DNA of 64,000 nt, from contig OZ245364.1 in assembly GCA_965226545.1 (NCBI GenBank), positions 1,067,890 to 1,131,889 on the forward strand. The letters run 5' to 3'. Shown here one piece after another: positions 8,714 through 25,168 of the stretch; the stretch's first letter is position 1; each line of letters begins with the position of its first letter. The translations under genes and the position numbers were made by a program. The notes beneath the pieces were generated by a model that saw only the letters and a program-made list of their open reading frames with translations, was not told the DNA's origin and ran no database searches. This DNA comes from Candidatus Poriferihabitaceae bacterium (GTDB lineage Bacteria > Pseudomonadota > Gammaproteobacteria > Arenicellales > Poriferihabitantaceae).

Positions 8714-9819
8714 ACAACGTGTCGTCTTCGCCCGCATCTTCTTCGTCGGCGTTGACCGCCACTCCATGCATCCTGATGCGTGGCGGCACGTCGCGCGGCG
8801 CGTATTTCAACGCCGCCGATGTGCCGCGCGCGCGCGACAAACTCGGTGAGTTTTTAATCGCGGCCATGGGCGCGGGTTCACCGCTGCAAGTCGACGGCGT
8901 CGGCGGCGGACAGCCGACCACCAGCAAAGCCGCAGTGTTGTCGCGCGCCGACCACGAGTGGGCGGAGATTGATTATTTGTTTGCGCAAGTGCATACCACC
9001 CGCCGCGAAGTCGATTTCACGCCGAACTGCGGCAACATTCTCGCCGGCGTCGCCCCGGCCGCATTGGAGATGGGTTTGGCGACCATCGACGGCGCAACCA
9101 CCCGCGTGCGCATCCGCAATCTCAACACCGACGCATTGGTCGAGGCGCATATCGAAACGCCGAACAATGCGGTCAACTACATCGGCGACGCACAAATCGC
9201 CGGCGTGCCCGGCGGTGCCGCGCCTGTGCGGCTGAATTTTATGAATGTGGTCGGCGCCGCCAGCGGCGCGTTGTTGCCGACCGGCAATGCGCGCGATCGT
9301 ATCGACGGCGTCGAAGTGAGTTGCGTCGATGTTGCGATGCCGATGGTGTTTGCGCGATGCGAAGATTTCGGCGTGTCATTGGATGATGCGCGCCGCCCCC
9401 TCGACGCCAACGCCAAATTATTCGAAAAAATCGAGCGGTTGCGAATCCAAGCCGGCGCAAAAATGAACTTGGGCGATGTGCGCAACAAAGTCATCCCCAA
9501 GGTGGCGTTGCTGGCGCGCGCGCGCCAAGGCGGTCACATCGCCGCGCGGTATTTAACGCCGTGGACTTTTCATCCGAGTTATGCGGTAACCGGCGCGCTA
9601 TGCACCGGCGCAAGCGCGCTGTGCGTTGGCGCATTAACCGCCGAACTCGCCGCACCGTGCGCATCAGGCAAACCGTTTGTGATTGAACATTTAAGCGGCG
9701 TCATCGAAGCGGTGTTTAATTATGAACATCAAGGCGATGCCTTGACGCTGCATTCCGCCGGCATACTGCGCACCGCGCGCAAAATTTTCGCCGGCGAAAT
9801 TTTTACCGCGGACAAATAA
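8692..9819 (+). CDS. PrpF family isomerase (2-methylaconitate isomerase / 4-oxalomesaconate tautomerase-like)
   Basis: Motifs PCILMRGGTSRGAYF and FTPNCGNILAGVAPAA. The track start is a TTG overlapping tctA by 22 nt, so the exact start is uncertain. Confidence 0.85.
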   Translation: MAVVRVVNNVSSSPASSSSALTATPCILMRGGTSRGAYFNAADVPRARDKLGEFLIAAMGAGSPLQVDGVGGGQPTTSKAAVLSRADHEWAEIDYLFAQVHTTRREVDFTPNCGNILAGVAPAALEMGLATIDGATTRVRIRNLNTDALVEAHIETPNNAVNYIGDAQIAGVPGGAAPVRLNFMNVVGAASGALLPTGNARDRIDGVEVSCVDVAMPMVFARCEDFGVSLDDARRPLDANAKLFEKIERLRIQAGAKMNLGDVRNKVIPKVALLARARQGGHIAARYLTPWTFHPSYAVTGALCTGASALCVGALTAELAAPCASGKPFVIEHLSGVIEAVFNYEHQGDALTLHSAGILRTARKIFAGEIFTADK

Positions 9820-11544: not shown

Positions 11545-12858
11545 TCACTCGGCGTCACTCGGCGTAAACACCTCAATCGCCGAATGTCTCCCGCGCAACA
11601 CGGCGGCGGCTTTGGCGGTGAAGCGGATTTTTTTTGAGTGGCAGAGTTCGACGGTGCGTTTGGACACCAAAATCGAAGTGCCGTATTCCTTGTTGAGTTG
11701 TTCCAAGCGCGCGGCGATGTTGACGTTGTCGCCGTATACGGTGTAGTTGAGGCGGTCGGCGGTGCCGACAAAGCCGCCGACGATGTTGCCGGTGTTGACG
11801 CCGATGCGCGCGCGCAGTTGCACGCCGCTTGCAAAAGTGCGCCCGGCCAGCAGGCGTTGTATCGCCAAGGCGGTGGCGACGGCGTTGTCGGCGTGATTGG
11901 GGTCGACGCCGGGCAGATTGAAACTCGCCATAATCGCATCGCCTTCGAACAAACAAATTTCGCCGTGGTGTTTTTTAATCGGCGCGTGAATCACCGACAG
12001 GTATTCATTGACCGTGGCGATTAATTCATCCGGGCTGAGTTTTTCGGACATCGTGGTAAACGATTCCAAATCGGCGAATAAAATTGTCGCTTCGCGGGTT
12101 TCCGGGCGGGCGTCGATTAATGAGCCGCCGCTGGCCGCGATGCGGTCGGCGACGCCGCTGGGGACAAAATGCGAAAGATTGGCGGCGGCGTTGGCTTCGA
12201 CAATCGATTCAATCAACAATCGCCGTGCGCGCGCAATCGCCACGCCGAGCACGGCGGTGACCACGCCTATCGAGATGATTTTGTCGACTTCGCCGCCGAC
12301 TAGCACACGGCGATTCGATGTCAAGTATTCGACATAGTCGCGGGTGATTGCCGAAGGGTCGGCTCCGATGGCAAGCGAAACCAACAACAACCAACCGCCG
12401 GCGCCGACTAGGCCTGCGAGCAGCACATAGCGCGGCTCAAACCGCAAGGCGCGCAAGGCGATGAAGATGAAGATATACAGCAGGGTCGGCGCCTTTAAAT
12501 AAAACGCCGGCGGCTGGGCGTATTGCAAATGAAACGACCAAATCAAGCCGAGCAACAGCGCCATGTCGACCAAAATCGACAGCAACAAAAACCAAAACGG
12601 CAGGCTGATTTTATGCGCCAAATACAGGCGCAAACAGGTGAACGCAAAATACGCAAGCAAAAACGCCGGCACCGGTTCGAACGCCGCACCGCTTGGCGCG
12701 GTTTTCGGCGCGGCAATGTAGAGCGCGGCGAAAGCCAATAATATCGAGAGTTGAATCCAGCCAATCAGACGTTCGCTGCCGTCCTGCTGGCGTTCAATCG
12801 CGTTGCGCACCACCGGCGGCAAGGCGGCTTCGGGCGATTTGCCCTTAAATAGGCGCAT
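11545..12858 (-). CDS. Membrane-anchored class III adenylate/guanylate cyclase
   Basis: Six N-terminal hydrophobic helices plus a cyclase homology domain (ILFADLESFT, FEGDAIMASF, RIGVNTGNIVGG, YTVYGDNVNIAARLE). Confidence 0.9.
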   Translation of the reverse strand: MRLFKGKSPEAALPPVVRNAIERQQDGSERLIGWIQLSILLAFAALYIAAPKTAPSGAAFEPVPAFLLAYFAFTCLRLYLAHKISLPFWFLLLSILVDMALLLGLIWSFHLQYAQPPAFYLKAPTLLYIFIFIALRALRFEPRYVLLAGLVGAGGWLLLVSLAIGADPSAITRDYVEYLTSNRRVLVGGEVDKIISIGVVTAVLGVAIARARRLLIESIVEANAAANLSHFVPSGVADRIAASGGSLIDARPETREATILFADLESFTTMSEKLSPDELIATVNEYLSVIHAPIKKHHGEICLFEGDAIMASFNLPGVDPNHADNAVATALAIQRLLAGRTFASGVQLRARIGVNTGNIVGGFVGTADRLNYTVYGDNVNIAARLEQLNKEYGTSILVSKRTVELCHSKKIRFTAKAAAVLRGRHSAIEVFTPSDAE

Positions 12859-12947
12859 GGTTTTGGCGCATCATCGCGGCGCGATTCGAGGCGTTCGAAG
12901 GGGATTGACGGTGATTGGACGGCGCTTCGAGCGTGGCTCGAGCGTTG

Positions 12948-14015
12948 TTACGAATGGCGCGCGAGCGGCTCGGCGCCCGCGTTCGGCGGCGTTGAGTCGC
13001 CGGCGTCGGTGGTGGCTTGATGCTTTACTTGGTCATACCACAAATCGTGATGTTGCTTTGCCCATTCGACGCTGACATGCCCGCGCGTCATGCCTTCGAG
13101 CGCGCCTTCGGTGCCGATGGTGCCGATGTAAACATGCCCGAAGAACACCACAATCCATAAAAGCGCGGCGACGGCGTGGATTTGATGCATGAACTGCATG
13201 TCGGCGCGGCTGTTGTCGACCAAGCCAATCGCGCCGAGCCAGCCAATCAAGCCAAAGCCGCTTATGCACACCGCGCCTAAGCCGACAAAAATCACCAGCC
13301 AAAACCAAATTTTTTCGCCGCCGTTGGCTTTGCCGGCGCTGGGGTGGGATGTGCCGATGATGCCGCCGCCTTGCTTCAGCCATTGGAGGTCGGCGCGGGT
13401 CGGCAGGTTGTTTTTGACCCAGCACAACAACATCGCCAACACGCCGAGCGAAAAGAACGGGCCGATGATGTTATGCAGATTAATCGACAGCGTTGCCCAA
13501 TTGGCAAAGCCGGCGGCGCCGAGCAACGGTATCAGCACGACGCGCCCAAACAATAAACTTAACCCGGTAATCGCCAACACGATGAACAAGCCGGCGGTAT
13601 ACCAATGCATGATGCGTTCCCAGCGTCGCCAGCGCGGCACGCGCATGCCGGAGGTTTCGCCATGCAGTTTGATTTTGCCGCGCACCGCGTAAAACAGCGC
13701 AAGCGCCAGCAACACGCCGATAATCGCCCAGCCGCCGTAAGTGGCGATGACGCCGTTGCGCATCTCGCGCCAGTTTTGCCCGCCGTTGTTAATCAACACG
13801 CCGCGCTCAAAGCCCGGCAATGAGGTGTAGCCGGCTTCGCCGCGCCGCACGGCGCGCCATAAATCGGCGCGCGGGTTGATTTCATCGATGGCGGTTTGCG
13901 CATGCGCGTTGGGTGCGCCGACAAAATACGATGCGGTCGGCAACGCCGTCGCACAAACGACCACCGCCGCCAACGCCAACGCCATCGCGCGGCTACGTGA
14001 ATTTTTTGTTTTCAT
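12948..14015 (-). CDS. Formate dehydrogenase gamma (cytochrome b) subunit with periplasmic N-terminal extension
   Basis: Signal-like N-terminus MKTKNSRSRAMALALAAVVVCA, then a 4-TM cytochrome b module (RWERIMHWYTAGLFIVLAITG ... HQIHAVAALLWIVVFFGHVY). It is the last gene of the fdh operon. Confidence 0.85.
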   Translation of the reverse strand: MKTKNSRSRAMALALAAVVVCATALPTASYFVGAPNAHAQTAIDEINPRADLWRAVRRGEAGYTSLPGFERGVLINNGGQNWREMRNGVIATYGGWAIIGVLLALALFYAVRGKIKLHGETSGMRVPRWRRWERIMHWYTAGLFIVLAITGLSLLFGRVVLIPLLGAAGFANWATLSINLHNIIGPFFSLGVLAMLLCWVKNNLPTRADLQWLKQGGGIIGTSHPSAGKANGGEKIWFWLVIFVGLGAVCISGFGLIGWLGAIGLVDNSRADMQFMHQIHAVAALLWIVVFFGHVYIGTIGTEGALEGMTRGHVSVEWAKQHHDLWYDQVKHQATTDAGDSTPPNAGAEPLARHS

Positions 14016-14160
14016 GGTGGATTGCCTCGGGCGTGAATGGTGAGTGTTAACCAATGGGGTCGGCGTAACGATGTTCGTAACGATGCTCGTAATTACGTTA
14101 ACGGCGTTGTCGATGCCAACAGTCGAAGTCGTTAATTAACGCAATGAACGGGCGGTGACA

Positions 14161-14484
14161 TTAACGGTCGGTTTGTCGCGCAAAGCGCGCGGCCAAAGCG
14201 GCGTCGTCGGTGTTGTTGACCAGCGGGTCCGGCGCGCCTTGATAGACGCCCGGGCGATAACAAATCGCCCCGGATTTTTCCCAACAGCCGGACAACAACA
14301 CACAACTCAACAACACGCCGAGCAACGTTGCCGGCTTAACCAATCGACGTACGCCGCCGATGTTGCCGTTGGCATCGTCGGCGGCGACGGTTGACCGTGC
14401 GGTTGAACGTGCAGTCGACCGTATAGTCGACGATGCAATTGACGCATCACTTTGCATTTTGATTTGCGGCACGATTCGATTCAC
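14161..14484 (-). CDS. Small lipoprotein encoded inside the fdh operon
   Basis: Lipobox LLSGC preceded by the hydrophobic stretch KPATLLGVLLSCV. The N-terminal STARSTARST part is translated 12-nt repeat DNA, so the real start is probably downstream (ATG 14457 or TTG 14343). Confidence 0.5.
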   Translation of the reverse strand: MNRIVPQIKMQSDASIASSTIRSTARSTARSTVAADDANGNIGGVRRLVKPATLLGVLLSCVLLSGCWEKSGAICYRPGVYQGAPDPLVNNTDDAALAARFARQTDR

Positions 14485-14600
14485 GTTTCGGTTTGCGGGT
14501 TGTGGGTTACGTTTGGGGCAACTGTCGTTTATCGGTCAAGCGCGGCTTCGTTCATCGATGAACGCAATTAACCGTAATTAACCGCGCAACCAACGCGCGA

Positions 14601-15191
14601 CTAACCGGTTTTGCCGTACGCCGATTCCCAGCCCCAACTTTGCGAGCGTCCGCCGCGTTTGGTTACGCGTTCGCGATAGATGTCCGACACCATGTCGCCG
14701 TCGCCGGCGAGCAGGGCTTTGGTCGAACACATCTCGGCGCACAGCGGCAACTTGCCTTCAGCCAGACGGTTGCGGCCGTATTTGGCGGTCTCGATGGGCG
14801 AGTTGTCGTCGCCGGGGCCGCCGGCACAGAAGGTGCATTTATCCATCTTGCCGCGCACGCCGAAGGCGTCCTGTTGCGGATATTGCGGCGCGCCGAACGG
14901 GCAGGCGTACAGGCAATAGCCGCAACCGATGCATAAATCCTTGTCGTGCAACACCACGCCGTCGTCGGTGGTGTAAAAACAATCCACCGGACAAACCGCC
15001 GCACACGGCGCATCGGTGCAGTGCATGCACGCCACCGATATGGATTTCTCGCCAACTTCGCCGTCGCCGAGCGTGACCACGCGGCGTCGATTGACGCCCC
15101 ACGGCACTTCGTTTTCGTTTTTACACGCGGTGACGCAACCGTTGCATTCGATGCAGCGGTCGGCGTCGCACAAAAATTTCATTCTTGCCAT
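14601..15191 (-). CDS. Formate dehydrogenase beta (4Fe-4S) subunit
   Basis: 196 aa with four ferredoxin-type Cys clusters (CIECNGCVTACK, CMHCTDAPCAAVCP, CIGCGYCLYACP, CTFCAG...). Confidence 0.9.
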   Translation of the reverse strand: MARMKFLCDADRCIECNGCVTACKNENEVPWGVNRRRVVTLGDGEVGEKSISVACMHCTDAPCAAVCPVDCFYTTDDGVVLHDKDLCIGCGYCLYACPFGAPQYPQQDAFGVRGKMDKCTFCAGGPGDDNSPIETAKYGRNRLAEGKLPLCAEMCSTKALLAGDGDMVSDIYRERVTKRGGRSQSWGWESAYGKTG

Positions 15192-15209
15192 GATGATTTC
15201 CCCCGGAGG

Positions 15210-15245
15210 TTACGCCGCTTGTACGCGGCACAGTGACACTTTGGA
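15210..15245 (-). pseudogene. Relic copy of the last 11 codons plus stop of fdhA
   Basis: The minus strand reads TCC AAA GTG TCA CTG TGC CGC GTA CAA GCG GCG TAA = SKVSLCRVQAA*. The live fdhA end at 16035-16070 reads SKVSLCRVEAA*. The relic sits 18 nt upstream of the fdhB ATG, where the native fdhA stop would be expected. Confidence 0.8.
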
Positions 15246-15269
15246 TTGAGGTGATGGACGTTTAGAGTT

Positions 15270-15734
15270 TCAGTTGTCCTCCACTTCACCCACATTAACA
15301 AAGGATGAAAAAGTAACAACATTGCCGTCAACATTGTTGACTTTTGCCGTCACCTTAAAAGGATGCCATGCGTTAATTTTAATGCGGTTGCCGCGCAATT
15401 CATCGTCCGGCAAGTAGTCGGATTTGTCAAATTGCCACCTAACCTGTTCATTTTCAGGCAATGTAATATAGTCCGGCAATGAAAGACTGAGCATGATTTC
15501 GCTTTTGGGCGTAATCACCCCCCACGAAGCGAGTGTTTTGAGAATAATGCCTGTGCGCATCGATTTTCCCGCAACTTTAATGGCCGGGTTTACTACGCTA
15601 CCGGGGTTCGTCGATATATCCGGCAATAACGGTCGCCCTTGATTTACTGTCAGCACATTTTCCGCATGTGCGGCGAATGGCATTGCCGCGGCAACGCCAA
15701 GAAACAAGCACAGGGCAAGGTGTTTTTTCATCAT
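15270..15734 (-). CDS. Hypothetical secreted protein (154 aa) in low-GC cassette
   Basis: Signal peptide MMKKHLALCLFLGVAAAMPFAAHA, then a beta-rich-looking mature part. No family recognised. Confidence 0.6.
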   Translation of the reverse strand: MMKKHLALCLFLGVAAAMPFAAHAENVLTVNQGRPLLPDISTNPGSVVNPAIKVAGKSMRTGIILKTLASWGVITPKSEIMLSLSLPDYITLPENEQVRWQFDKSDYLPDDELRGNRIKINAWHPFKVTAKVNNVDGNVVTFSSFVNVGEVEDN

Positions 15735-15744
15735 TGGGCGATTT

Positions 15745-16035
15745 TTAAAATGTGTATTTAATGCTGTTGGATATGAACGGCGCATAAGTGGTTGCCAAAA
15801 TATGCAACCCAAACAATACAATGGTGCGGGCATTCGACAAGATTGGGCCGACCCAAATGACATACCACAACGCCGCACTTGTCATAACCAACACGGAAAC
15901 ATGAATTATGCCGGTTAAATTCACTTCAGTGACCGGCCATATCGTTCCTAACAACGCCGAAAGCATAGTGATTGTAATGCCAACTTTCACGCTTAAATAA
16001 GCGTGATTAAATTGATTGGATGTGTCTACAGCCAT
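15745..16035 (-). CDS. Hypothetical 3-TM membrane protein (96 aa) in low-GC cassette
   Basis: Its ATG (16035-16033) overlaps the fdhA stop TGA (16037-16035) as TGATG. It has three hydrophobic helices and no recognised family. Confidence 0.5.
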   Translation of the reverse strand: MAVDTSNQFNHAYLSVKVGITITMLSALLGTIWPVTEVNLTGIIHVSVLVMTSAALWYVIWVGPILSNARTIVLFGLHILATTYAPFISNSIKYTF

Positions 16036-18887
16036 CACGCCGCCTCAACCCTACAAAGCGACACTTTGGATTCCTGCATTTGCGTTACCGAATCGTAGCC
16101 GTAGGTAAACGCGGTGTTGCCGGCTTCGCCGCGCACATACGGCGCGGCGCCGCGCGGGTATTTGTCGAGCAAATCCTCGCCTTCATACCAGCCGCCGAAA
16201 TGGAACGGCACAAACAAAACGCCGCGCGCGACACGACGGGTTACAAACGCCTTGACTTTGATGCGCGCGCCTTCGGGCGATTCAATCCACACCATCTCGC
16301 CGTGCGCGACATCGTTGTCATTGGCGTCGGCCGGGTGAATCTCGCAGAACATATCCTGCTGCAATTCCGCCAGCCACGGATTCGAGCGGCTTTCTTCGCC
16401 GCCGCCTTCGTATTCGACCAACCGCCCGCTGGTGAAAATCATCGGGAAGTCTTTGGAATAATCGGTCGCTTGAATCGACGCATAGCGCGTCGGCAGGCGG
16501 TAAAACCGCTTGCGGTCTTCATAGGTCGGGTATTTGGCGGCCAGTTCGCGATCCGGGGTGTACAGCGGTTCGCGGTGAATCGGCACGCGGTCGGGGAAAG
16601 TCCACACAATCGCGCGCGCTTTGGCGTTGCCAAACGGCGCGCAACCGTGCGCAATCGCGACGCGTTGAATGCCGCCGGATAAATCGGTCTTCCAGTTTTT
16701 GCCTTCGGCCGCGGTTTGTTCGGCCGGGGTTAAATCGTCCCACCAGCCGAGATTTTTCAGCAGTTTGTCGCTGAACTCGGGATGACCATCGCGAATCTCC
16801 GAGCCTTTCGGCCAGGAATCCTCCGCCAGAATGTTGACGCCTTCGTGTTCGGTGCCGAAACGCGCGCGGAATGCCAGCCCGCCTTCGGCGACCGGGCGGC
16901 TGGTGTCGTACAACACCGGCGTGCCCGGATGACGCATCTCGGGCGTGCCCCAACACGGCCACGGCATGCCGTAATACTCGCCATCGACCGGCCCGCCTTC
17001 GGCAAGCAAGGTGGTGGTGTTGAAGGTGTGTTTGTTGCGCATGTGCGCTTTGAGCCGCTCGGGGCTTTGCCCGGTGTAGCCAATCGTCCACATGCCTTTG
17101 TTGTATTCGCGGGTGATGTCTTCGACCAGCGGTTCGTCGTCGTTGACTGCAATGTTTTTGCAGTATTCATCGGCAAACCCAAACTTGCGCGCGAATTTAT
17201 ACAAAATCACGTGGTCCGGCAACGATTCGAACAGCGGCGCAATCACCCGTTCGCGCCATTGCACCGAGCGATTCGATGCGGTGACCGAGCCGTAGGTTTC
17301 GAATTGCGTACATGCCGGCAACAAATACACGCCGTCGGTGCGGTCGTGCATGACCGCGGCATGCGTCGGATACGGGTCGATGATGACCATCATGTCGAGT
17401 TTGGCCATCGCCTTTTTCATTTCCGGCCCGCGCGTTTGGCTGTTGACCGCATGCCCCATCCACACCATCGCGCGCAGGTTGTCGCGCTGACCGATGTGGT
17501 CTTCGAGCACGCCATCGACCCAACGCGACACCGGAATGCCTTTGTAGTTCATCGCATGCACCGGCTTGCCGGAATCGCCTTCGATGCGCACCGGGCTAAA
17601 CCGCGATTTAACCCAATCGTGTTCCAGCCCCCACACTTTTGACCAATGCTTCCACGCGCCGTCGCTGAGTCCGTAATAGCCGGGCAATGAATGCGACAGC
17701 ACGCAAAAATCGGTCGCGCCCTGTACATTGTCATGCCCGCGGAAGATGTTCGCACCGCCGCCGGATTTGCCGATGTTGCCGAGCGCAAGTTGGAAGGCGC
17801 AATAGGCGCGCGTGTTGTTGTTGCCGATGGTGTGTTGGGTGCCGCCCATGCACCACACAAAAGTCGCCGGGGCGTTTTTCGCCATCATCTCGGCGGCGGT
17901 GCGCACCTCCTCTTCGGAGGCGCCGGTGACTCGTTCGGTTTCGCTCGGCGTCCATTTGGCGACTTCGGCGCGCACTTCATCCAAGCCATAGACGCGTTGG
18001 CGAATGTATTCGCGGTCTTCCCAGCCGTTTTCGAAGACATGCCACAGCATGCCCCAAATAAACGCGACATCGCTGCCGGGACGCAGGCGGACAAAATGGT
18101 CGGCGTGCGCGGCGGTGCGGGTGTATCGCGGGTCGATGACAATCATTTTCGCGCCGTTTTCCTTGGCGCGGAATATGTGCTGCAACGACACCGGATGCGC
18201 CTCGGCCGGGTTCGCGCCGATAAACAGCATGCACTTGCTGTTGTGCATGTCGTTGTAGGAATTGGTCATTGCGCCGTAGCCCCAGGTGTTGGCGACGCCG
18301 GCGACCGTGGTCGAATGGCAGATGCGCGCCTGATGGTCGACGTTGTTGGTGCCCCACATCGCCGCAAACTTGCGGAACATATAGGCTTGTTCGTTGCTGT
18401 GTTTTGCCGAGCCCATCCAATAGACCGAATCCGGGCCGGATTGTTCGCGGATTTCAATCATCTTGTCGCCGACTTCGTCGATGGCGGTTTTCCACGAGAT
18501 GCGCCGCCATTTGCCGCCGACCAATTTCATCGGGTATTTCAGCCGGCGTTCGCCGTGTCCGTGTTCGCGCACTGAGGCGCCTTTGGCGCAATGTGCTCCT
18601 AAGTTAAACGGCGAATCAAAATCCGGCTCTTGCCCGGTCCAAACGCCGTTTTGCACTTCGGCGACCACGCCGCAACCGACCGAGCAATGCGTACACACGC
18701 TCTTTTTAATCGTCACTTCGCCGTCGGCAACGGCGCTCGCCGCATGCGCCTTGCGCACACGCCCGGGCGCAAGCGCGGCCGCACCGGCGCCAAGCGTCAG
18801 CCCGCTACGCTGCAAAAATGCGCGGCGGCCAATCGTGTTGGTCGATGCCGAAGATGCGGCGTTGGGTTGTTTGCGCGTTAATTTCAT
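16035..18887 (-). CDS. Formate dehydrogenase alpha (molybdopterin) subunit, Cys-type, TAT-exported
   Basis: 950 aa. Twin-arginine signal GRRAFLQRSG, 4Fe-4S motif CTHCSVGCG, and a molybdopterin oxidoreductase core. The active-site position is Cys (QARICHSTTVAG), and there is no in-frame TGA. Confidence 0.95.
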   Translation of the reverse strand: MKLTRKQPNAASSASTNTIGRRAFLQRSGLTLGAGAAALAPGRVRKAHAASAVADGEVTIKKSVCTHCSVGCGVVAEVQNGVWTGQEPDFDSPFNLGAHCAKGASVREHGHGERRLKYPMKLVGGKWRRISWKTAIDEVGDKMIEIREQSGPDSVYWMGSAKHSNEQAYMFRKFAAMWGTNNVDHQARICHSTTVAGVANTWGYGAMTNSYNDMHNSKCMLFIGANPAEAHPVSLQHIFRAKENGAKMIVIDPRYTRTAAHADHFVRLRPGSDVAFIWGMLWHVFENGWEDREYIRQRVYGLDEVRAEVAKWTPSETERVTGASEEEVRTAAEMMAKNAPATFVWCMGGTQHTIGNNNTRAYCAFQLALGNIGKSGGGANIFRGHDNVQGATDFCVLSHSLPGYYGLSDGAWKHWSKVWGLEHDWVKSRFSPVRIEGDSGKPVHAMNYKGIPVSRWVDGVLEDHIGQRDNLRAMVWMGHAVNSQTRGPEMKKAMAKLDMMVIIDPYPTHAAVMHDRTDGVYLLPACTQFETYGSVTASNRSVQWRERVIAPLFESLPDHVILYKFARKFGFADEYCKNIAVNDDEPLVEDITREYNKGMWTIGYTGQSPERLKAHMRNKHTFNTTTLLAEGGPVDGEYYGMPWPCWGTPEMRHPGTPVLYDTSRPVAEGGLAFRARFGTEHEGVNILAEDSWPKGSEIRDGHPEFSDKLLKNLGWWDDLTPAEQTAAEGKNWKTDLSGGIQRVAIAHGCAPFGNAKARAIVWTFPDRVPIHREPLYTPDRELAAKYPTYEDRKRFYRLPTRYASIQATDYSKDFPMIFTSGRLVEYEGGGEESRSNPWLAELQQDMFCEIHPADANDNDVAHGEMVWIESPEGARIKVKAFVTRRVARGVLFVPFHFGGWYEGEDLLDKYPRGAAPYVRGEAGNTAFTYGYDSVTQMQESKVSLCRVEAA

Positions 18888-18961: not shown

Positions 18962-19180
18962 TCAAAATCTCGCCAAGCGGTAATAGCGACGCACATGCGC
19001 GGTTTCGCGATAGCCGTGCGCCGGCGAAGTTTCGGTGGGTTGGGTGTCGTCATTCGGCGCGCCGACGGCGGCGCGTGATGCGCCAATCGCGACGCCGGCG
19101 ACCGCGGCTTTCTTTAAAAAATCGCGGCGCGCAAGCGAATGTTGCGCCGTGTTGGCGGTGCGGTTTGCGGATTGTTTCAT
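18962..19180 (-). CDS. Small 'formate dehydrogenase region TAT target' protein
   Basis: 72 aa, with the twin-arginine signal ARRDFLKKAAVAG and the C-terminal motif GYRETAHVRRYY. This matches the family signature as I recall it (Y-[HRK]-x-[TS]-x-H-[IV]-x-x-[YF]-Y; I recall it as TIGR02811, which needs verification). Confidence 0.8.
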   Translation of the reverse strand: MKQSANRTANTAQHSLARRDFLKKAAVAGVAIGASRAAVGAPNDDTQPTETSPAHGYRETAHVRRYYRLARF

Positions 19181-19535
19181 TGCAAAACCTCTGTTGGTAT
19201 GTCGTTAATAATGATTAGTCAAGAATAATTGGCAAGGCAAAATTAAATCGTTGTGATGCGATTTAATCAAAACCGTTAGGTCACTCAAAAACAATATAAC
19301 CCATTGGCAATGATTAATGCCAAAAAATCGGCGGTATGTCAACTTAATTGGCAAATAAATTATCCAATAAATTGCCCATTAAAATGCCCATTAAAATGTC
19401 AATTAAATGGAAACCATCCAAAATGACCAGCCGCGATAAGGCATTGATAATGCGATTTAATTGACGATTATTGGCGATTTAATCGCAATAATCAAAAGTC
19501 AGCGATACATTAAATGCGTCCGCAATACGACATTA

Positions 19536-24982: not shown

Positions 24983-25168
24983 GAAAACCACAGCCGGGCG
25001 AACCACCTGGATTCAACGGACCTTGCAACCAAAGCCCTCCCAACCGCGAATGTCAATATTAATGGCGTGTCGATACAGTGTCAACCACTTTTGTCATCTT
25101 TTTGTGACTTTCACTCGTCTTTTGGCGACTTTGCCTGTGTTTTTAAGGCGCGAATTTTACCCTCCGCA

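Follow-up and report, generated by a model that had tools for sequence, protein, structure and literature searches.

A duplicated fdhA terminus in a gammaproteobacterial formate dehydrogenase operon as a probable scar of recombination between operon variants

Phage 21 and e14, which reside in icd of Escherichia coli, are prophage-type elements of 20–40 kb that bring an integrase of their own and have defined att cores, and the islands at tRNA genes are further gene-end-targeting elements likened to the same site-specific model. In homology-facilitated illegitimate recombination, which occurs in naturally transformable bacteria, a homologous anchor on one side is combined with an illegitimate joint. 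The locus described here is a formate dehydrogenase (FDH) operon on the minus strand of a 64-kb stretch of contig OZ245364.1 (hereafter, the window), in which the 3′ end of fdhA is present twice, on either side of two small open reading frames (ORF1 and ORF2; hereafter, the pair). Comparison with sister strains suggests that the duplicated end is probably a recombination scar between pair-bearing and pair-less variants of the operon. The arrangement resembles that of phage 21 and e14 at icd in that the insert lies in the 3′ end of a coding gene, a synonymous-variant replacement terminus is in place, and the displaced original appears as a direct-repeat relic. The window insert, however, is 825 bp long and holds two genes that are not recombinases, the 'replacement' is the ordinary fdhA end of a co-existing variant, and the relic is missing from most carriers of the pair. 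The features of the operon are listed below in the order of transcription (TAT, twin-arginine translocation).

18962–19180, minus strand: 72-residue 'formate dehydrogenase region TAT target' gene, first gene of the examined operon stretch (NCBIfam TIGR02811, 50.1 bits, cut-off 48.45)
16035–18887, minus strand: fdhA, 950-residue molybdopterin catalytic subunit (Pfam Molybdop_Fe4S4, Molybdopterin and Molydop_binding on sister proteins of identical length)
16035–16072, minus strand: live 'B-type' fdhA terminus, AATCCAAAGTGTC + GCTTTGTAGGGTTGAGGCGGCGTGA (sequence and repeat search)
15745–16035, minus strand: ORF1, 96-residue small membrane protein, with about three transmembrane segments by hydropathy; its ATG overlaps the fdhA stop (TGATG)
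15270–15734, minus strand: ORF2, 154-residue Sec-exported protein, signal peptide MMKKHLALCLFLGVAAAMPFAAHA/E, ending AHA/E
15248–15269, minus strand: 22-nt stretch AACTCTAAACGTCCATCACCTC from the ORF2 stop to the relic, without counterpart in fdhA
15210–15247, minus strand: relic 'A-type' fdhA terminus (AA, 11 codons and TAA), untranslated, matching the live end of sister strain L084
15192–15209, minus strand: native 18-nt fdhA–fdhB spacer CCTCCGGGGGAAATCATC with the fdhB ribosome-binding site, by reading of the sequence
14601–15191, minus strand: fdhB, 196-residue FDH3-type iron-sulfur subunit (NCBIfam NF038355 FDH3_beta, E 2e-102, 340.8 bits, cut-off 240)
12948–14054, minus strand: fdhC, cytochrome b gamma subunit (TIGR01583, E 8e-44, 150 bits, cut-off 115.85; Pfam Ni_hydr_CYTB)

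The live end of fdhA (TCCAAAGTGTCGCTTTGTAGGGTTGAGGCGGCGTGA, 16070–16035) and its second copy (TCCAAAGTGTCACTGTGCCGCGTACAAGCGGCGTAA, 15245–15210) form the top direct repeat in a repeat search (36 nt, 78% identity, spacing 825). The copies match at 27 of 36 positions over 12 codons, and at 29 of 38 when two flanking A's are added; their identical core is 13 nt long (AATCCAAAGTGTC). The encoded peptides are SKVSLCRVEAA in the live copy and SKVSLCRVQAA in the relic, each followed by a stop, and GAG/CAA is the sole non-synonymous difference, stop codons aside. On neither strand of the window does another 36-mer share 24 or more positions with the live end, and the relic is identical at all 36 positions to the live fdhA end of L084 (35 of 36 for the sister strains L083 and L085). 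This uniqueness, together with the perfect match to a functional terminus, excludes a chance origin of the repeat. At the relic, similarity of the fdhA–fdhB interval to fdhA begins at AATCCAAAG, and the joint at 15247/15248 is without homology.

For comparison, 80 related fdh loci (FdhB 77–88% identical) were taken from GTDB representative genomes; both fdhA and fdhB were present in 78 of them. The fdhA stop lies 3–41 nt before the fdhB ATG in 75 of these 78 operons, with a GGAG-like site between, and the relic and its spacer therefore sit where a native stop belongs. The spacer, directly 3′ of which fdhB starts with its ATG at 15191, resembles the pair-less junctions of other taxa, for example GCGGCGTAA GGGGGAAA...ATG in L067 and L068. 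An earlier note on this DNA, made from the sequence alone, had described a second terminus 18 nt before fdhB in the native position, mostly synonymous differences between the copies, an AT-richer insert, a 96-residue protein with three transmembrane segments whose ATG overlaps the fdhA stop, and a 154-residue signal-peptide protein. All of this was reproduced; the 13-nt core that it gave was likewise found, and its count of 28 identities in 38 positions was one short.

The relic is also in frame with ORF2, behind the ORF2 TGA (EVEDN, stop, NSKRPSPQSKVSLCRVQAA, stop). Hypothetical read-through of the TGA would extend ORF2 by 19 residues and give it the C-terminal peptide of FdhA at its end; taken alone, the frame agreement is a one-in-three coincidence.

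The 90%-identity cluster of the window FdhA has 17 members, the contigs of which gave nine sister loci (L081–L089), the majority from a single European Nucleotide Archive assembly (ERZ25073868). Many close strains co-exist in at least this one sample of the window population. The FdhA proteins of the nine loci (ten including the window) are 99.6–99.8% identical in amino acid sequence to that of the window. Beside FdhA of about 99.7% identity, four kinds of content are found in the slot between fdhA and fdhB: pair 1 (six loci), pair 2 (the window only), X1 and X2. In the six pair-1 loci (L081, L082 and L086–L089), fdhA ends ...TCGCTTTGCAGGGTTGAGGCGGCGTGATG (the B terminus), one synonymous nucleotide off the live end of the window. 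It is followed by a 99-residue transmembrane protein and a signal-peptide protein of 162–164 residues, which are 99–100% identical among the six strains; fdhB begins 4 nt past the ORF2 stop, without a relic in between. In L083 and L085, fdhA ends ...TCACTGTGTCGCGTACAAGCGGCGTAA (the A terminus, 35 of 36 identical to the window relic), and the slot holds X1, one secreted protein of 128 residues with KYNSFENKWE-type repeats. L084 has the A terminus followed by X2, a secreted protein of 138 residues with GNFSYHNWSDGTSGSSN repeats.

Pair-bearing strains have the B terminus and pair-less strains the A terminus; both occur together only in the window. The two variants are identical through ...AATCCAAAGTGTC and then differ at 9 of 25 nt, with the divergent block starting 25 nt ahead of the stop whenever A and B are compared, while the rest of fdhA is less than 1% different. 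What is a relic in the window serves as the working fdhA end in a co-existing variant of the operon, and the live end of the window is the one that pair-bearing operons normally have. In the B terminus, the codons AGG GTT GAG form a GAGG motif 7 nt 5′ of the ORF1 ATG, which is a putative Shine-Dalgarno-like site for ORF1; no GAGG motif is found in the A terminus. Two proposals of the earlier note are upheld by these comparisons. The relic, taken there for a displaced native fdhA terminus, is identical to the end of the pair-less L084 and is still followed by the native spacer with the ribosome-binding site of fdhB, and the live terminus, taken to have come with the two genes, precedes the pair in six sister loci, with the TGATG overlap also present in an outgroup (L090). 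In the comparison of junctions in relatives that it had suggested, the pair is absent from the 78 related operons and is carried without a relic by six sister loci.

We propose that a single recombination event joined a B-type (pair-bearing) operon to an A-type (pair-less) one. One end of the exchange would have been homologous and located within fdhA, and the other would have been illegitimate, 38 nt before the pair-less stop, leaving the order of B terminus, pair 2, 22 nt, A terminus, native spacer and fdhB. The pattern would be that of homology-facilitated illegitimate recombination, presumably through its one-sided-homology mechanism: one tract end lies in fdhA of about 99% identity, the other joint is non-homologous, and a short duplication is present. 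The likeness has a limit in that private single-nucleotide polymorphisms (SNPs) run beyond the scar, so that the tract need not stem from this event alone. Selection would keep only those joints in which the B terminus makes fdhA whole and the relic and spacer leave the initiation region of fdhB intact; such selection for a working enzyme would account for the tidy look of the scar.

Of the two directions, entry of the B block into an A-type operon is slightly favoured. Between the position 864 nt upstream of fdhA and about nt 1600 within it, the window and L084 show no differences, shared indels included. Over the next ~1,250 nt of fdhA there are 19 differences (three of them private to the window), and then 9 in the last 25 nt. 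The SNP tract starts in fdhA at approximately nt 1600–1641, and the private alleles, which continue past the scar, are located at fdhA nt 1945, 2229 and 2244 and at 11 sites from fdhB nt 366 to ~2.4 kb downstream.

Several points weigh against this account of the scar. The data fix neither the direction nor the exact mechanism, and window-private alleles lie on both sides of the slot, so that the whole block, scar included, may derive from an unsampled lineage. The flanking SNP patterns are too mosaic to set the direction of the event, with short recombination tracts in the population. A strain of the type in which the A terminus, the 18-nt spacer and fdhB follow one another directly was not found, and a scan of metagenome DNA for a conserved 20-mer of the fdhA 3′ end returned only the unrelated L091, which has a normal junction. 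No second carrier of pair 2 was recovered, leaving no donor for comparison; at 90% identity, the window ORF1 and ORF2 are singletons among 5.8 billion clusters. Finally, repeated use of the junction could mean something more directed than chance illegitimate recombination, since four contents are known from the window population and a fifth from the distant L001, L095 has tandem pairs, and the L083 gene is flanked by a 7-nt CGTAACC repeat.

The same scar could conceivably have arisen in the reverse direction, which we consider possible though distinctly less probable. Here a resident B-type operon would have received a pair-less import that replaced the ORF2–fdhB junction and brought the last 38 nt of its own fdhA; the 'relic' would then, with the same tentative standing, be an imported piece instead of the original end of the gene. 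Carriage by L095 and L090, though not by L005, makes the pair probably ancestral, and the right junction of L081 (CAACCGAGGGTTAACATCATG) is common to L095, so that the relic-free B arrangement is old; a population that is a mosaic of short recombination tracts would also accommodate such an import. The structure is symmetrical and favours neither direction, but the first variable sites of fdhB (nt 21 and 36) agree with the B-type L087 and L088 and not with the A-type strains, so that the imported tract would be only ~60–80 nt long, and over the 2.5 kb upstream the window does not differ from the A-type L084. It is very improbable that metagenome assembly fused co-existing strains of the A and B types into a chimera. 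Many close strains are indeed present in at least one sample (ERZ25073868), but the assembler would have had to switch paths without shared sequence, where the stretch downstream of ORF2 meets fdhA at –38. The sole shared stretch is 13 nt, far under overlap or k-mer lengths; moreover, the contig spans 2.67 Mb, and every reading frame and ribosome-binding site is intact.

We give little credence to a site-specific element that targets the fdhA 3′ end with a replacement terminus, either mobilised in trans or the remnant of something larger. Target direct repeats do flank the insert, with the 13-nt identical core at the crossover side, many different contents occupy the slot, a 7-nt direct repeat surrounds the L083 gene, and the pair is also found outside fdh operons. 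The core, however, is conserved fdhA sequence upstream of the A/B divergence, and the 'replacement terminus' is not specific to the cassette, as it also precedes a different pair of 27–29% identity. The six pair-bearing sister loci and both outgroups are without the relic, the ends of the insert vary between cassettes, and there are no inverted repeats at the ends. Searches with Pfam, NCBIfam, PHROG and PADLOC found no recombinase in the segment, where ORF1 and ORF2 are the only genes, and the neighbours annotated by Pfam at the syntenic sister loci include no integrase, transposase or recombinase. No other genome or site was found to hold this element with matching att ends, and the other pair loci have no relic. 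An insertion sequence, miniature inverted-repeat element or transposon was rejected because terminal inverted repeats and a transposase are lacking and the repeat is an imperfect 38-nt coding copy, not a target-site duplication. A test for integron cassettes (20 inverted-repeat pairs reported in 14900–16400) gave no cassette-end inverted repeat, and there is no integrase nearby. Slot contents do resemble integron cassettes as small promoter-less units of one or two genes, in tandem in L095, that depend on an upstream promoter; unlike them, they have no IntI, attI or attC, and their boundaries are not uniform. The earlier note was correct that no integrase or transposase is present. Its suggestion that the insertion occurred as site-specific elements do is not borne out, for want of a recombinase, attC-like or terminal inverted repeats, and recurrence with the same ends.

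The scar between pair-bearing and pair-less operons is, in our reading, a variant of flexible genomic islets combined with 3′-end duplication on insertion, and not a new type of mobile element. As in flexible islets, a single slot with conserved flanks, here >99% identical, has differing content among conspecific loci, and this content is unrelated, exported or envelope-associated, and of lower G+C. Unlike in such islets, the slot is only 0.4–0.8 kb long (1.5–2 kb in L095), lies inside a respiratory operon between two subunit genes, and has its contents translationally chained to the subunits. The scar would be a rare readable record of an accessory block moving between versions of an essential-looking operon with the neighbouring genes unbroken: the block brings a full fdhA terminus with a built-in candidate ribosome-binding site for its own first gene, while the old terminus stays as the untouched translation-initiation region of fdhB. 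It exposes a sub-kilobase operon slot that differs among strains otherwise ~99.7% identical there, and could serve as a marker of strain diversity and recombination in uncultured symbionts.

Some further observations concern the slot. In L083, two direct copies of the 7-nt sequence CGTAACC, which comes from around the fdhA stop, border the X1 insert (L083:8848–8860 and 9255–9280). The 19 nt before fdhB in this strain (CCGTAACCGGTAAATCATC) resemble a shortened native end and spacer (GCGTAACCTCCGGGGGAAATCATC), and the X1 cassette may also carry a small junction duplication. In L001, a distant gammaproteobacterial metagenome-assembled genome (FdhA 73% identical), an unrelated signal-peptide protein of 129 residues is encoded between fdhA and fdhB (L001:5586–5975); with an insert of its own, L001 points to independent use of the junction outside the window clade. 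Resemblances of 8–14 nt to the relic upstream of fdhB in L084, L001 and L095 were too weak and were not used.

The pair belongs to a family that is spread beyond the window. Word-indexed protein searches with the single ORFs recovered only ORF1 and ORF2 themselves, but an exhaustive HMMER search of 1.84 billion proteins found 8 other representatives of ORF2 (E 8e-17 to 7e-4), and a profile search returned 31 clusters, all unnamed. ORF1 homologues accompany ORF2 at every pair locus examined, and their alignment shares M1, K17, A81, P86 and a YLSVKIGI motif. The idea that the two are orphans was ruled out by these searches; if that was meant in the earlier note, where neither ORF was recognised, it does not hold. 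The window, L081, L090, L095 (twice) and L092 have the two genes side by side; gene calling missed ORF1 in L093 and L094, where only tblastn revealed it.

By FdhA identity, the outgroups of the window clade follow in the order L095 (86.8%), L090 (85.4%) and L005 (83.2%). L090 is a gammaproteobacterial symbiont of a deep-sea sponge (accession LFLB01000000, ~2.7 Mb; PMC5361782). The window clade is gammaproteobacterial, with this symbiont as its closest named relative, and its members are probably sponge-associated. In L090 the order is fdhA-TGATG-ORF1-ORF2-fdhB. In L095–L097, fdhA is followed by a pair, an unrelated 130-residue gene, a second paralogous pair and fdhB (L095:3481–5540), and there are no fdhA-terminus relics between the tandem pairs of L095. 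In L092–L094 the pair stands alone, outside an fdh operon, between a divergent major facilitator superfamily (MFS) gene and a convergent ATP-binding cassette (ABC) transporter gene (L092:4663–5480; L093 and L094:4660–5483), on contigs of 0.8–2.6 Mb from sample ERZ22155170. The pair was found in none of the 78 related operons and is absent from L005. Its presence in both of the nearest outgroups, L095 and L090, indicates that it is probably ancestral to the operon of the clade.

Base composition does not set the window pair apart from its relatives. The G+C contents of ORF1 (42.3%) and ORF2 (46.9%) are below those of fdhA (59.9%), fdhB (60.9%) and the window (56.3%), although equally low values occur in further 1-kb bins of the window (46.8–50%). 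The pair is likewise poorer in G+C than its flanks in L081 (49–52% versus 60%), L090 (40–46% versus 52–53%), L095 (53–63% versus 64–66%) and L092 (51–52% versus 60–62%). As the pair lies 5–15 percentage points below the flanking genes in every host examined, low G+C is a trait of the family and was rejected as a sign of recent arrival. The earlier view of a foreign low-G+C cassette is thus contradicted, the pair being resident in the fdh operons of the clade (L095, L090). Nor do the rare codons of the live terminus mark it as foreign, because they form the GAGG Shine-Dalgarno-like motif for ORF1 and nearly the same terminus stands before a different pair in L081.

The two pairs of the window population are remarkably distant for such close strains: between the window and L081, FdhA is 99.7% identical, but ORF1 only 27% and ORF2 29%, a distance equal to that of either to the L090 pair. 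Versions of the pair are in general 27–33% identical to one another, as against 85–99.7% for FdhA. In a family-wide comparison, the window ORF2 groups loosely with the representatives P0033–P0035 and L090, and the L081 ORF2 with the first pair of L095, which places the two in different deep subclades of the family. Hypermutation or divergence in place was rejected, as pair 1 is 99–100% identical over its six strains; the low identity between the pairs together with the invariance of pair 1 points to non-allelic replacement.

ORF1 is predicted from its sequence to be an inner-membrane protein with three transmembrane segments. An AlphaFold2 model of ORF2 based on a nine-sequence alignment (mean predicted local distance difference test score, pLDDT, 80; predicted template modelling score 0.71) is an all-beta sandwich with one helix, and the predicted fold is an immunoglobulin-like (Ig-like) beta-sandwich. 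Foldseek comparison of the model with the PDB returned only generic Ig-like structures (SoxYZ, YEATS, PKD, CrdA and PmoD; E ~0.01, TM-score 0.3–0.4), and no function was assigned from matches so weak and generic; a sequence-profile search of the PDB gave no match. Residues Q32, P35, I52, L68, P76, L82, W100, Y107, W123, F126 and T141 of ORF2 are invariant. There are no conserved Cys, His or Met residues in the ORF2 alignment, which makes a redox or metal-binding role unlikely. Searches of Pfam, NCBIfam, PADLOC and PHROGs with ORF1, ORF2 and the remaining genes of the slot yielded no match above threshold, mobile-element and defence families included; the only sub-threshold or minor matches were to pYEATS (E 0.03–0.14), a 2TM 'effector' (E 0.003) and, over 31 residues of X1, phrog_28453 of unknown function (E 1.7e-06).

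With regard to function, we lean towards the pair being a periplasmic or envelope module that FDH catalysis can do without and that is carried along by operon transcription and translational coupling. It would be dispensable because unrelated genes replace it beside a near-identical enzyme, because it is absent from the 78 operons, and because it stands alone elsewhere; it is nevertheless repeatedly chained to fdhA through the TGATG overlap. A true but optional accessory of FDH, such as a tether or stabiliser, is a more doubtful candidate. Equally tentative is the related idea that ORF1 and ORF2 are genuine FDH3 accessory subunits, an anchor and a periplasmic partner, with slot variation reflecting exchange of alternative subunits. 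The constant position right after fdhA, with translational coupling in three lineages, would suit such a role, as would a transmembrane and periplasmic topology alongside a TAT-exported periplasmic enzyme whose beta subunit (196 residues) has no anchor, and the confident model (pLDDT 80) suggests that ORF2 is a real folded protein. Against it, sister strains with ~99.7% identical FdhA carry unrelated repeat proteins in place of the pair, all 78 related operons are without it, L092–L094 have it alone between MFS and ABC-transporter genes, ORF2 lacks conserved Cys, His and Met, and versions of the pair are 27–33% identical while FdhA and FdhB are 85–99% so. An obligatory FDH subunit was rejected: the pair is absent from the A-type sisters as well as the 78 operons and evolves unlike the enzyme. 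Of the two options in the earlier note, a new partner of the enzyme or a hitch-hiking module, the second fits the data better than an obligatory subunit.

All of the slot contents (pair 1, pair 2, X1, X2 and the L001 ORF) are exported or membrane proteins. For this reason we keep in view, as an unlikely option, a dedicated integrase-free cassette slot in which genes for small exported or membrane proteins would be swapped among strains by recombination in the subunit genes, under diversifying or frequency-dependent selection. With each exchange the end of fdhA and the ribosome-binding site of fdhB would be restored, the respiratory operon with its strong expression would act as an expression platform, and strain competition (with an effector/immunity-like pair), host interaction or phage evasion would be examples of the selective force. 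The locus also exposes an uncharacterised two-protein family, predicted to consist of a three-segment membrane protein and an exported Ig-like protein, whose members recur within periplasmic FDH3 operons, and it provides a lead for research on periplasmic formate dehydrogenases.

The operon otherwise has the canonical FDH3 layout of TAT-target gene, fdhA, fdhB and fdhC. All four genes match curated models, with NF038355, TIGR01583 and TIGR02811 all scoring above their cut-offs, and the usual spacing is kept at the relic; unlike the window operon, 75 of the 78 examined have nothing between fdhA and fdhB. No sigma-70-like promoter and no terminator-like site was found inside the 825-bp segment, which is accordingly read as part of the operon. 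Pfam-annotated neighbours at the sister loci comprise FdhD, DUF3305, DUF3306, an Fe-S protein, a TorD-like chaperone, a cytochrome b and a guanylate cyclase.

A very AT-rich stretch at 19100–19500 (31–42% G+C), which precedes the TAT-target gene and fdhA, is probably the promoter region of the operon. It contains several strain-specific indels, among them a 25-nt insertion common to the window and L084 only. The spacer between fdhB and fdhC (14055–14600) also has many small indels among the sister strains. It encodes a 107-residue ORF (14161–14484, GTG start) without a family match, and small genes are called in the same spacer in L086 (98 residues), L090 (63 residues) and L095 (81 residues). 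At the junction of fdhC and the gene with a guanylate-cyclase domain (11545–12858), corresponding to ~12859–12947 of the window, L081, L086 and L088 have an extra gene of ~650 nt that encodes a 180-residue protein of unknown family. This gene is absent in the window, L083, L084, L087 and L089, and is a second presence/absence polymorphism near the same operon. ARAGORN called a 94-nt 'tRNA-Arg (acg)' at 12918–13011 on the plus strand, antisense to the 3′ end of fdhC; its length and position make the call a probable false positive. Farther away, a DUF3800-VI RNA motif of Rfam lies at 24991–25046 on the minus strand (45.1 bits, gathering score 35), and positions 1–1374 of the window hold a partial 23S rRNA gene (model positions 1771–2925) followed by a 5S rRNA gene.

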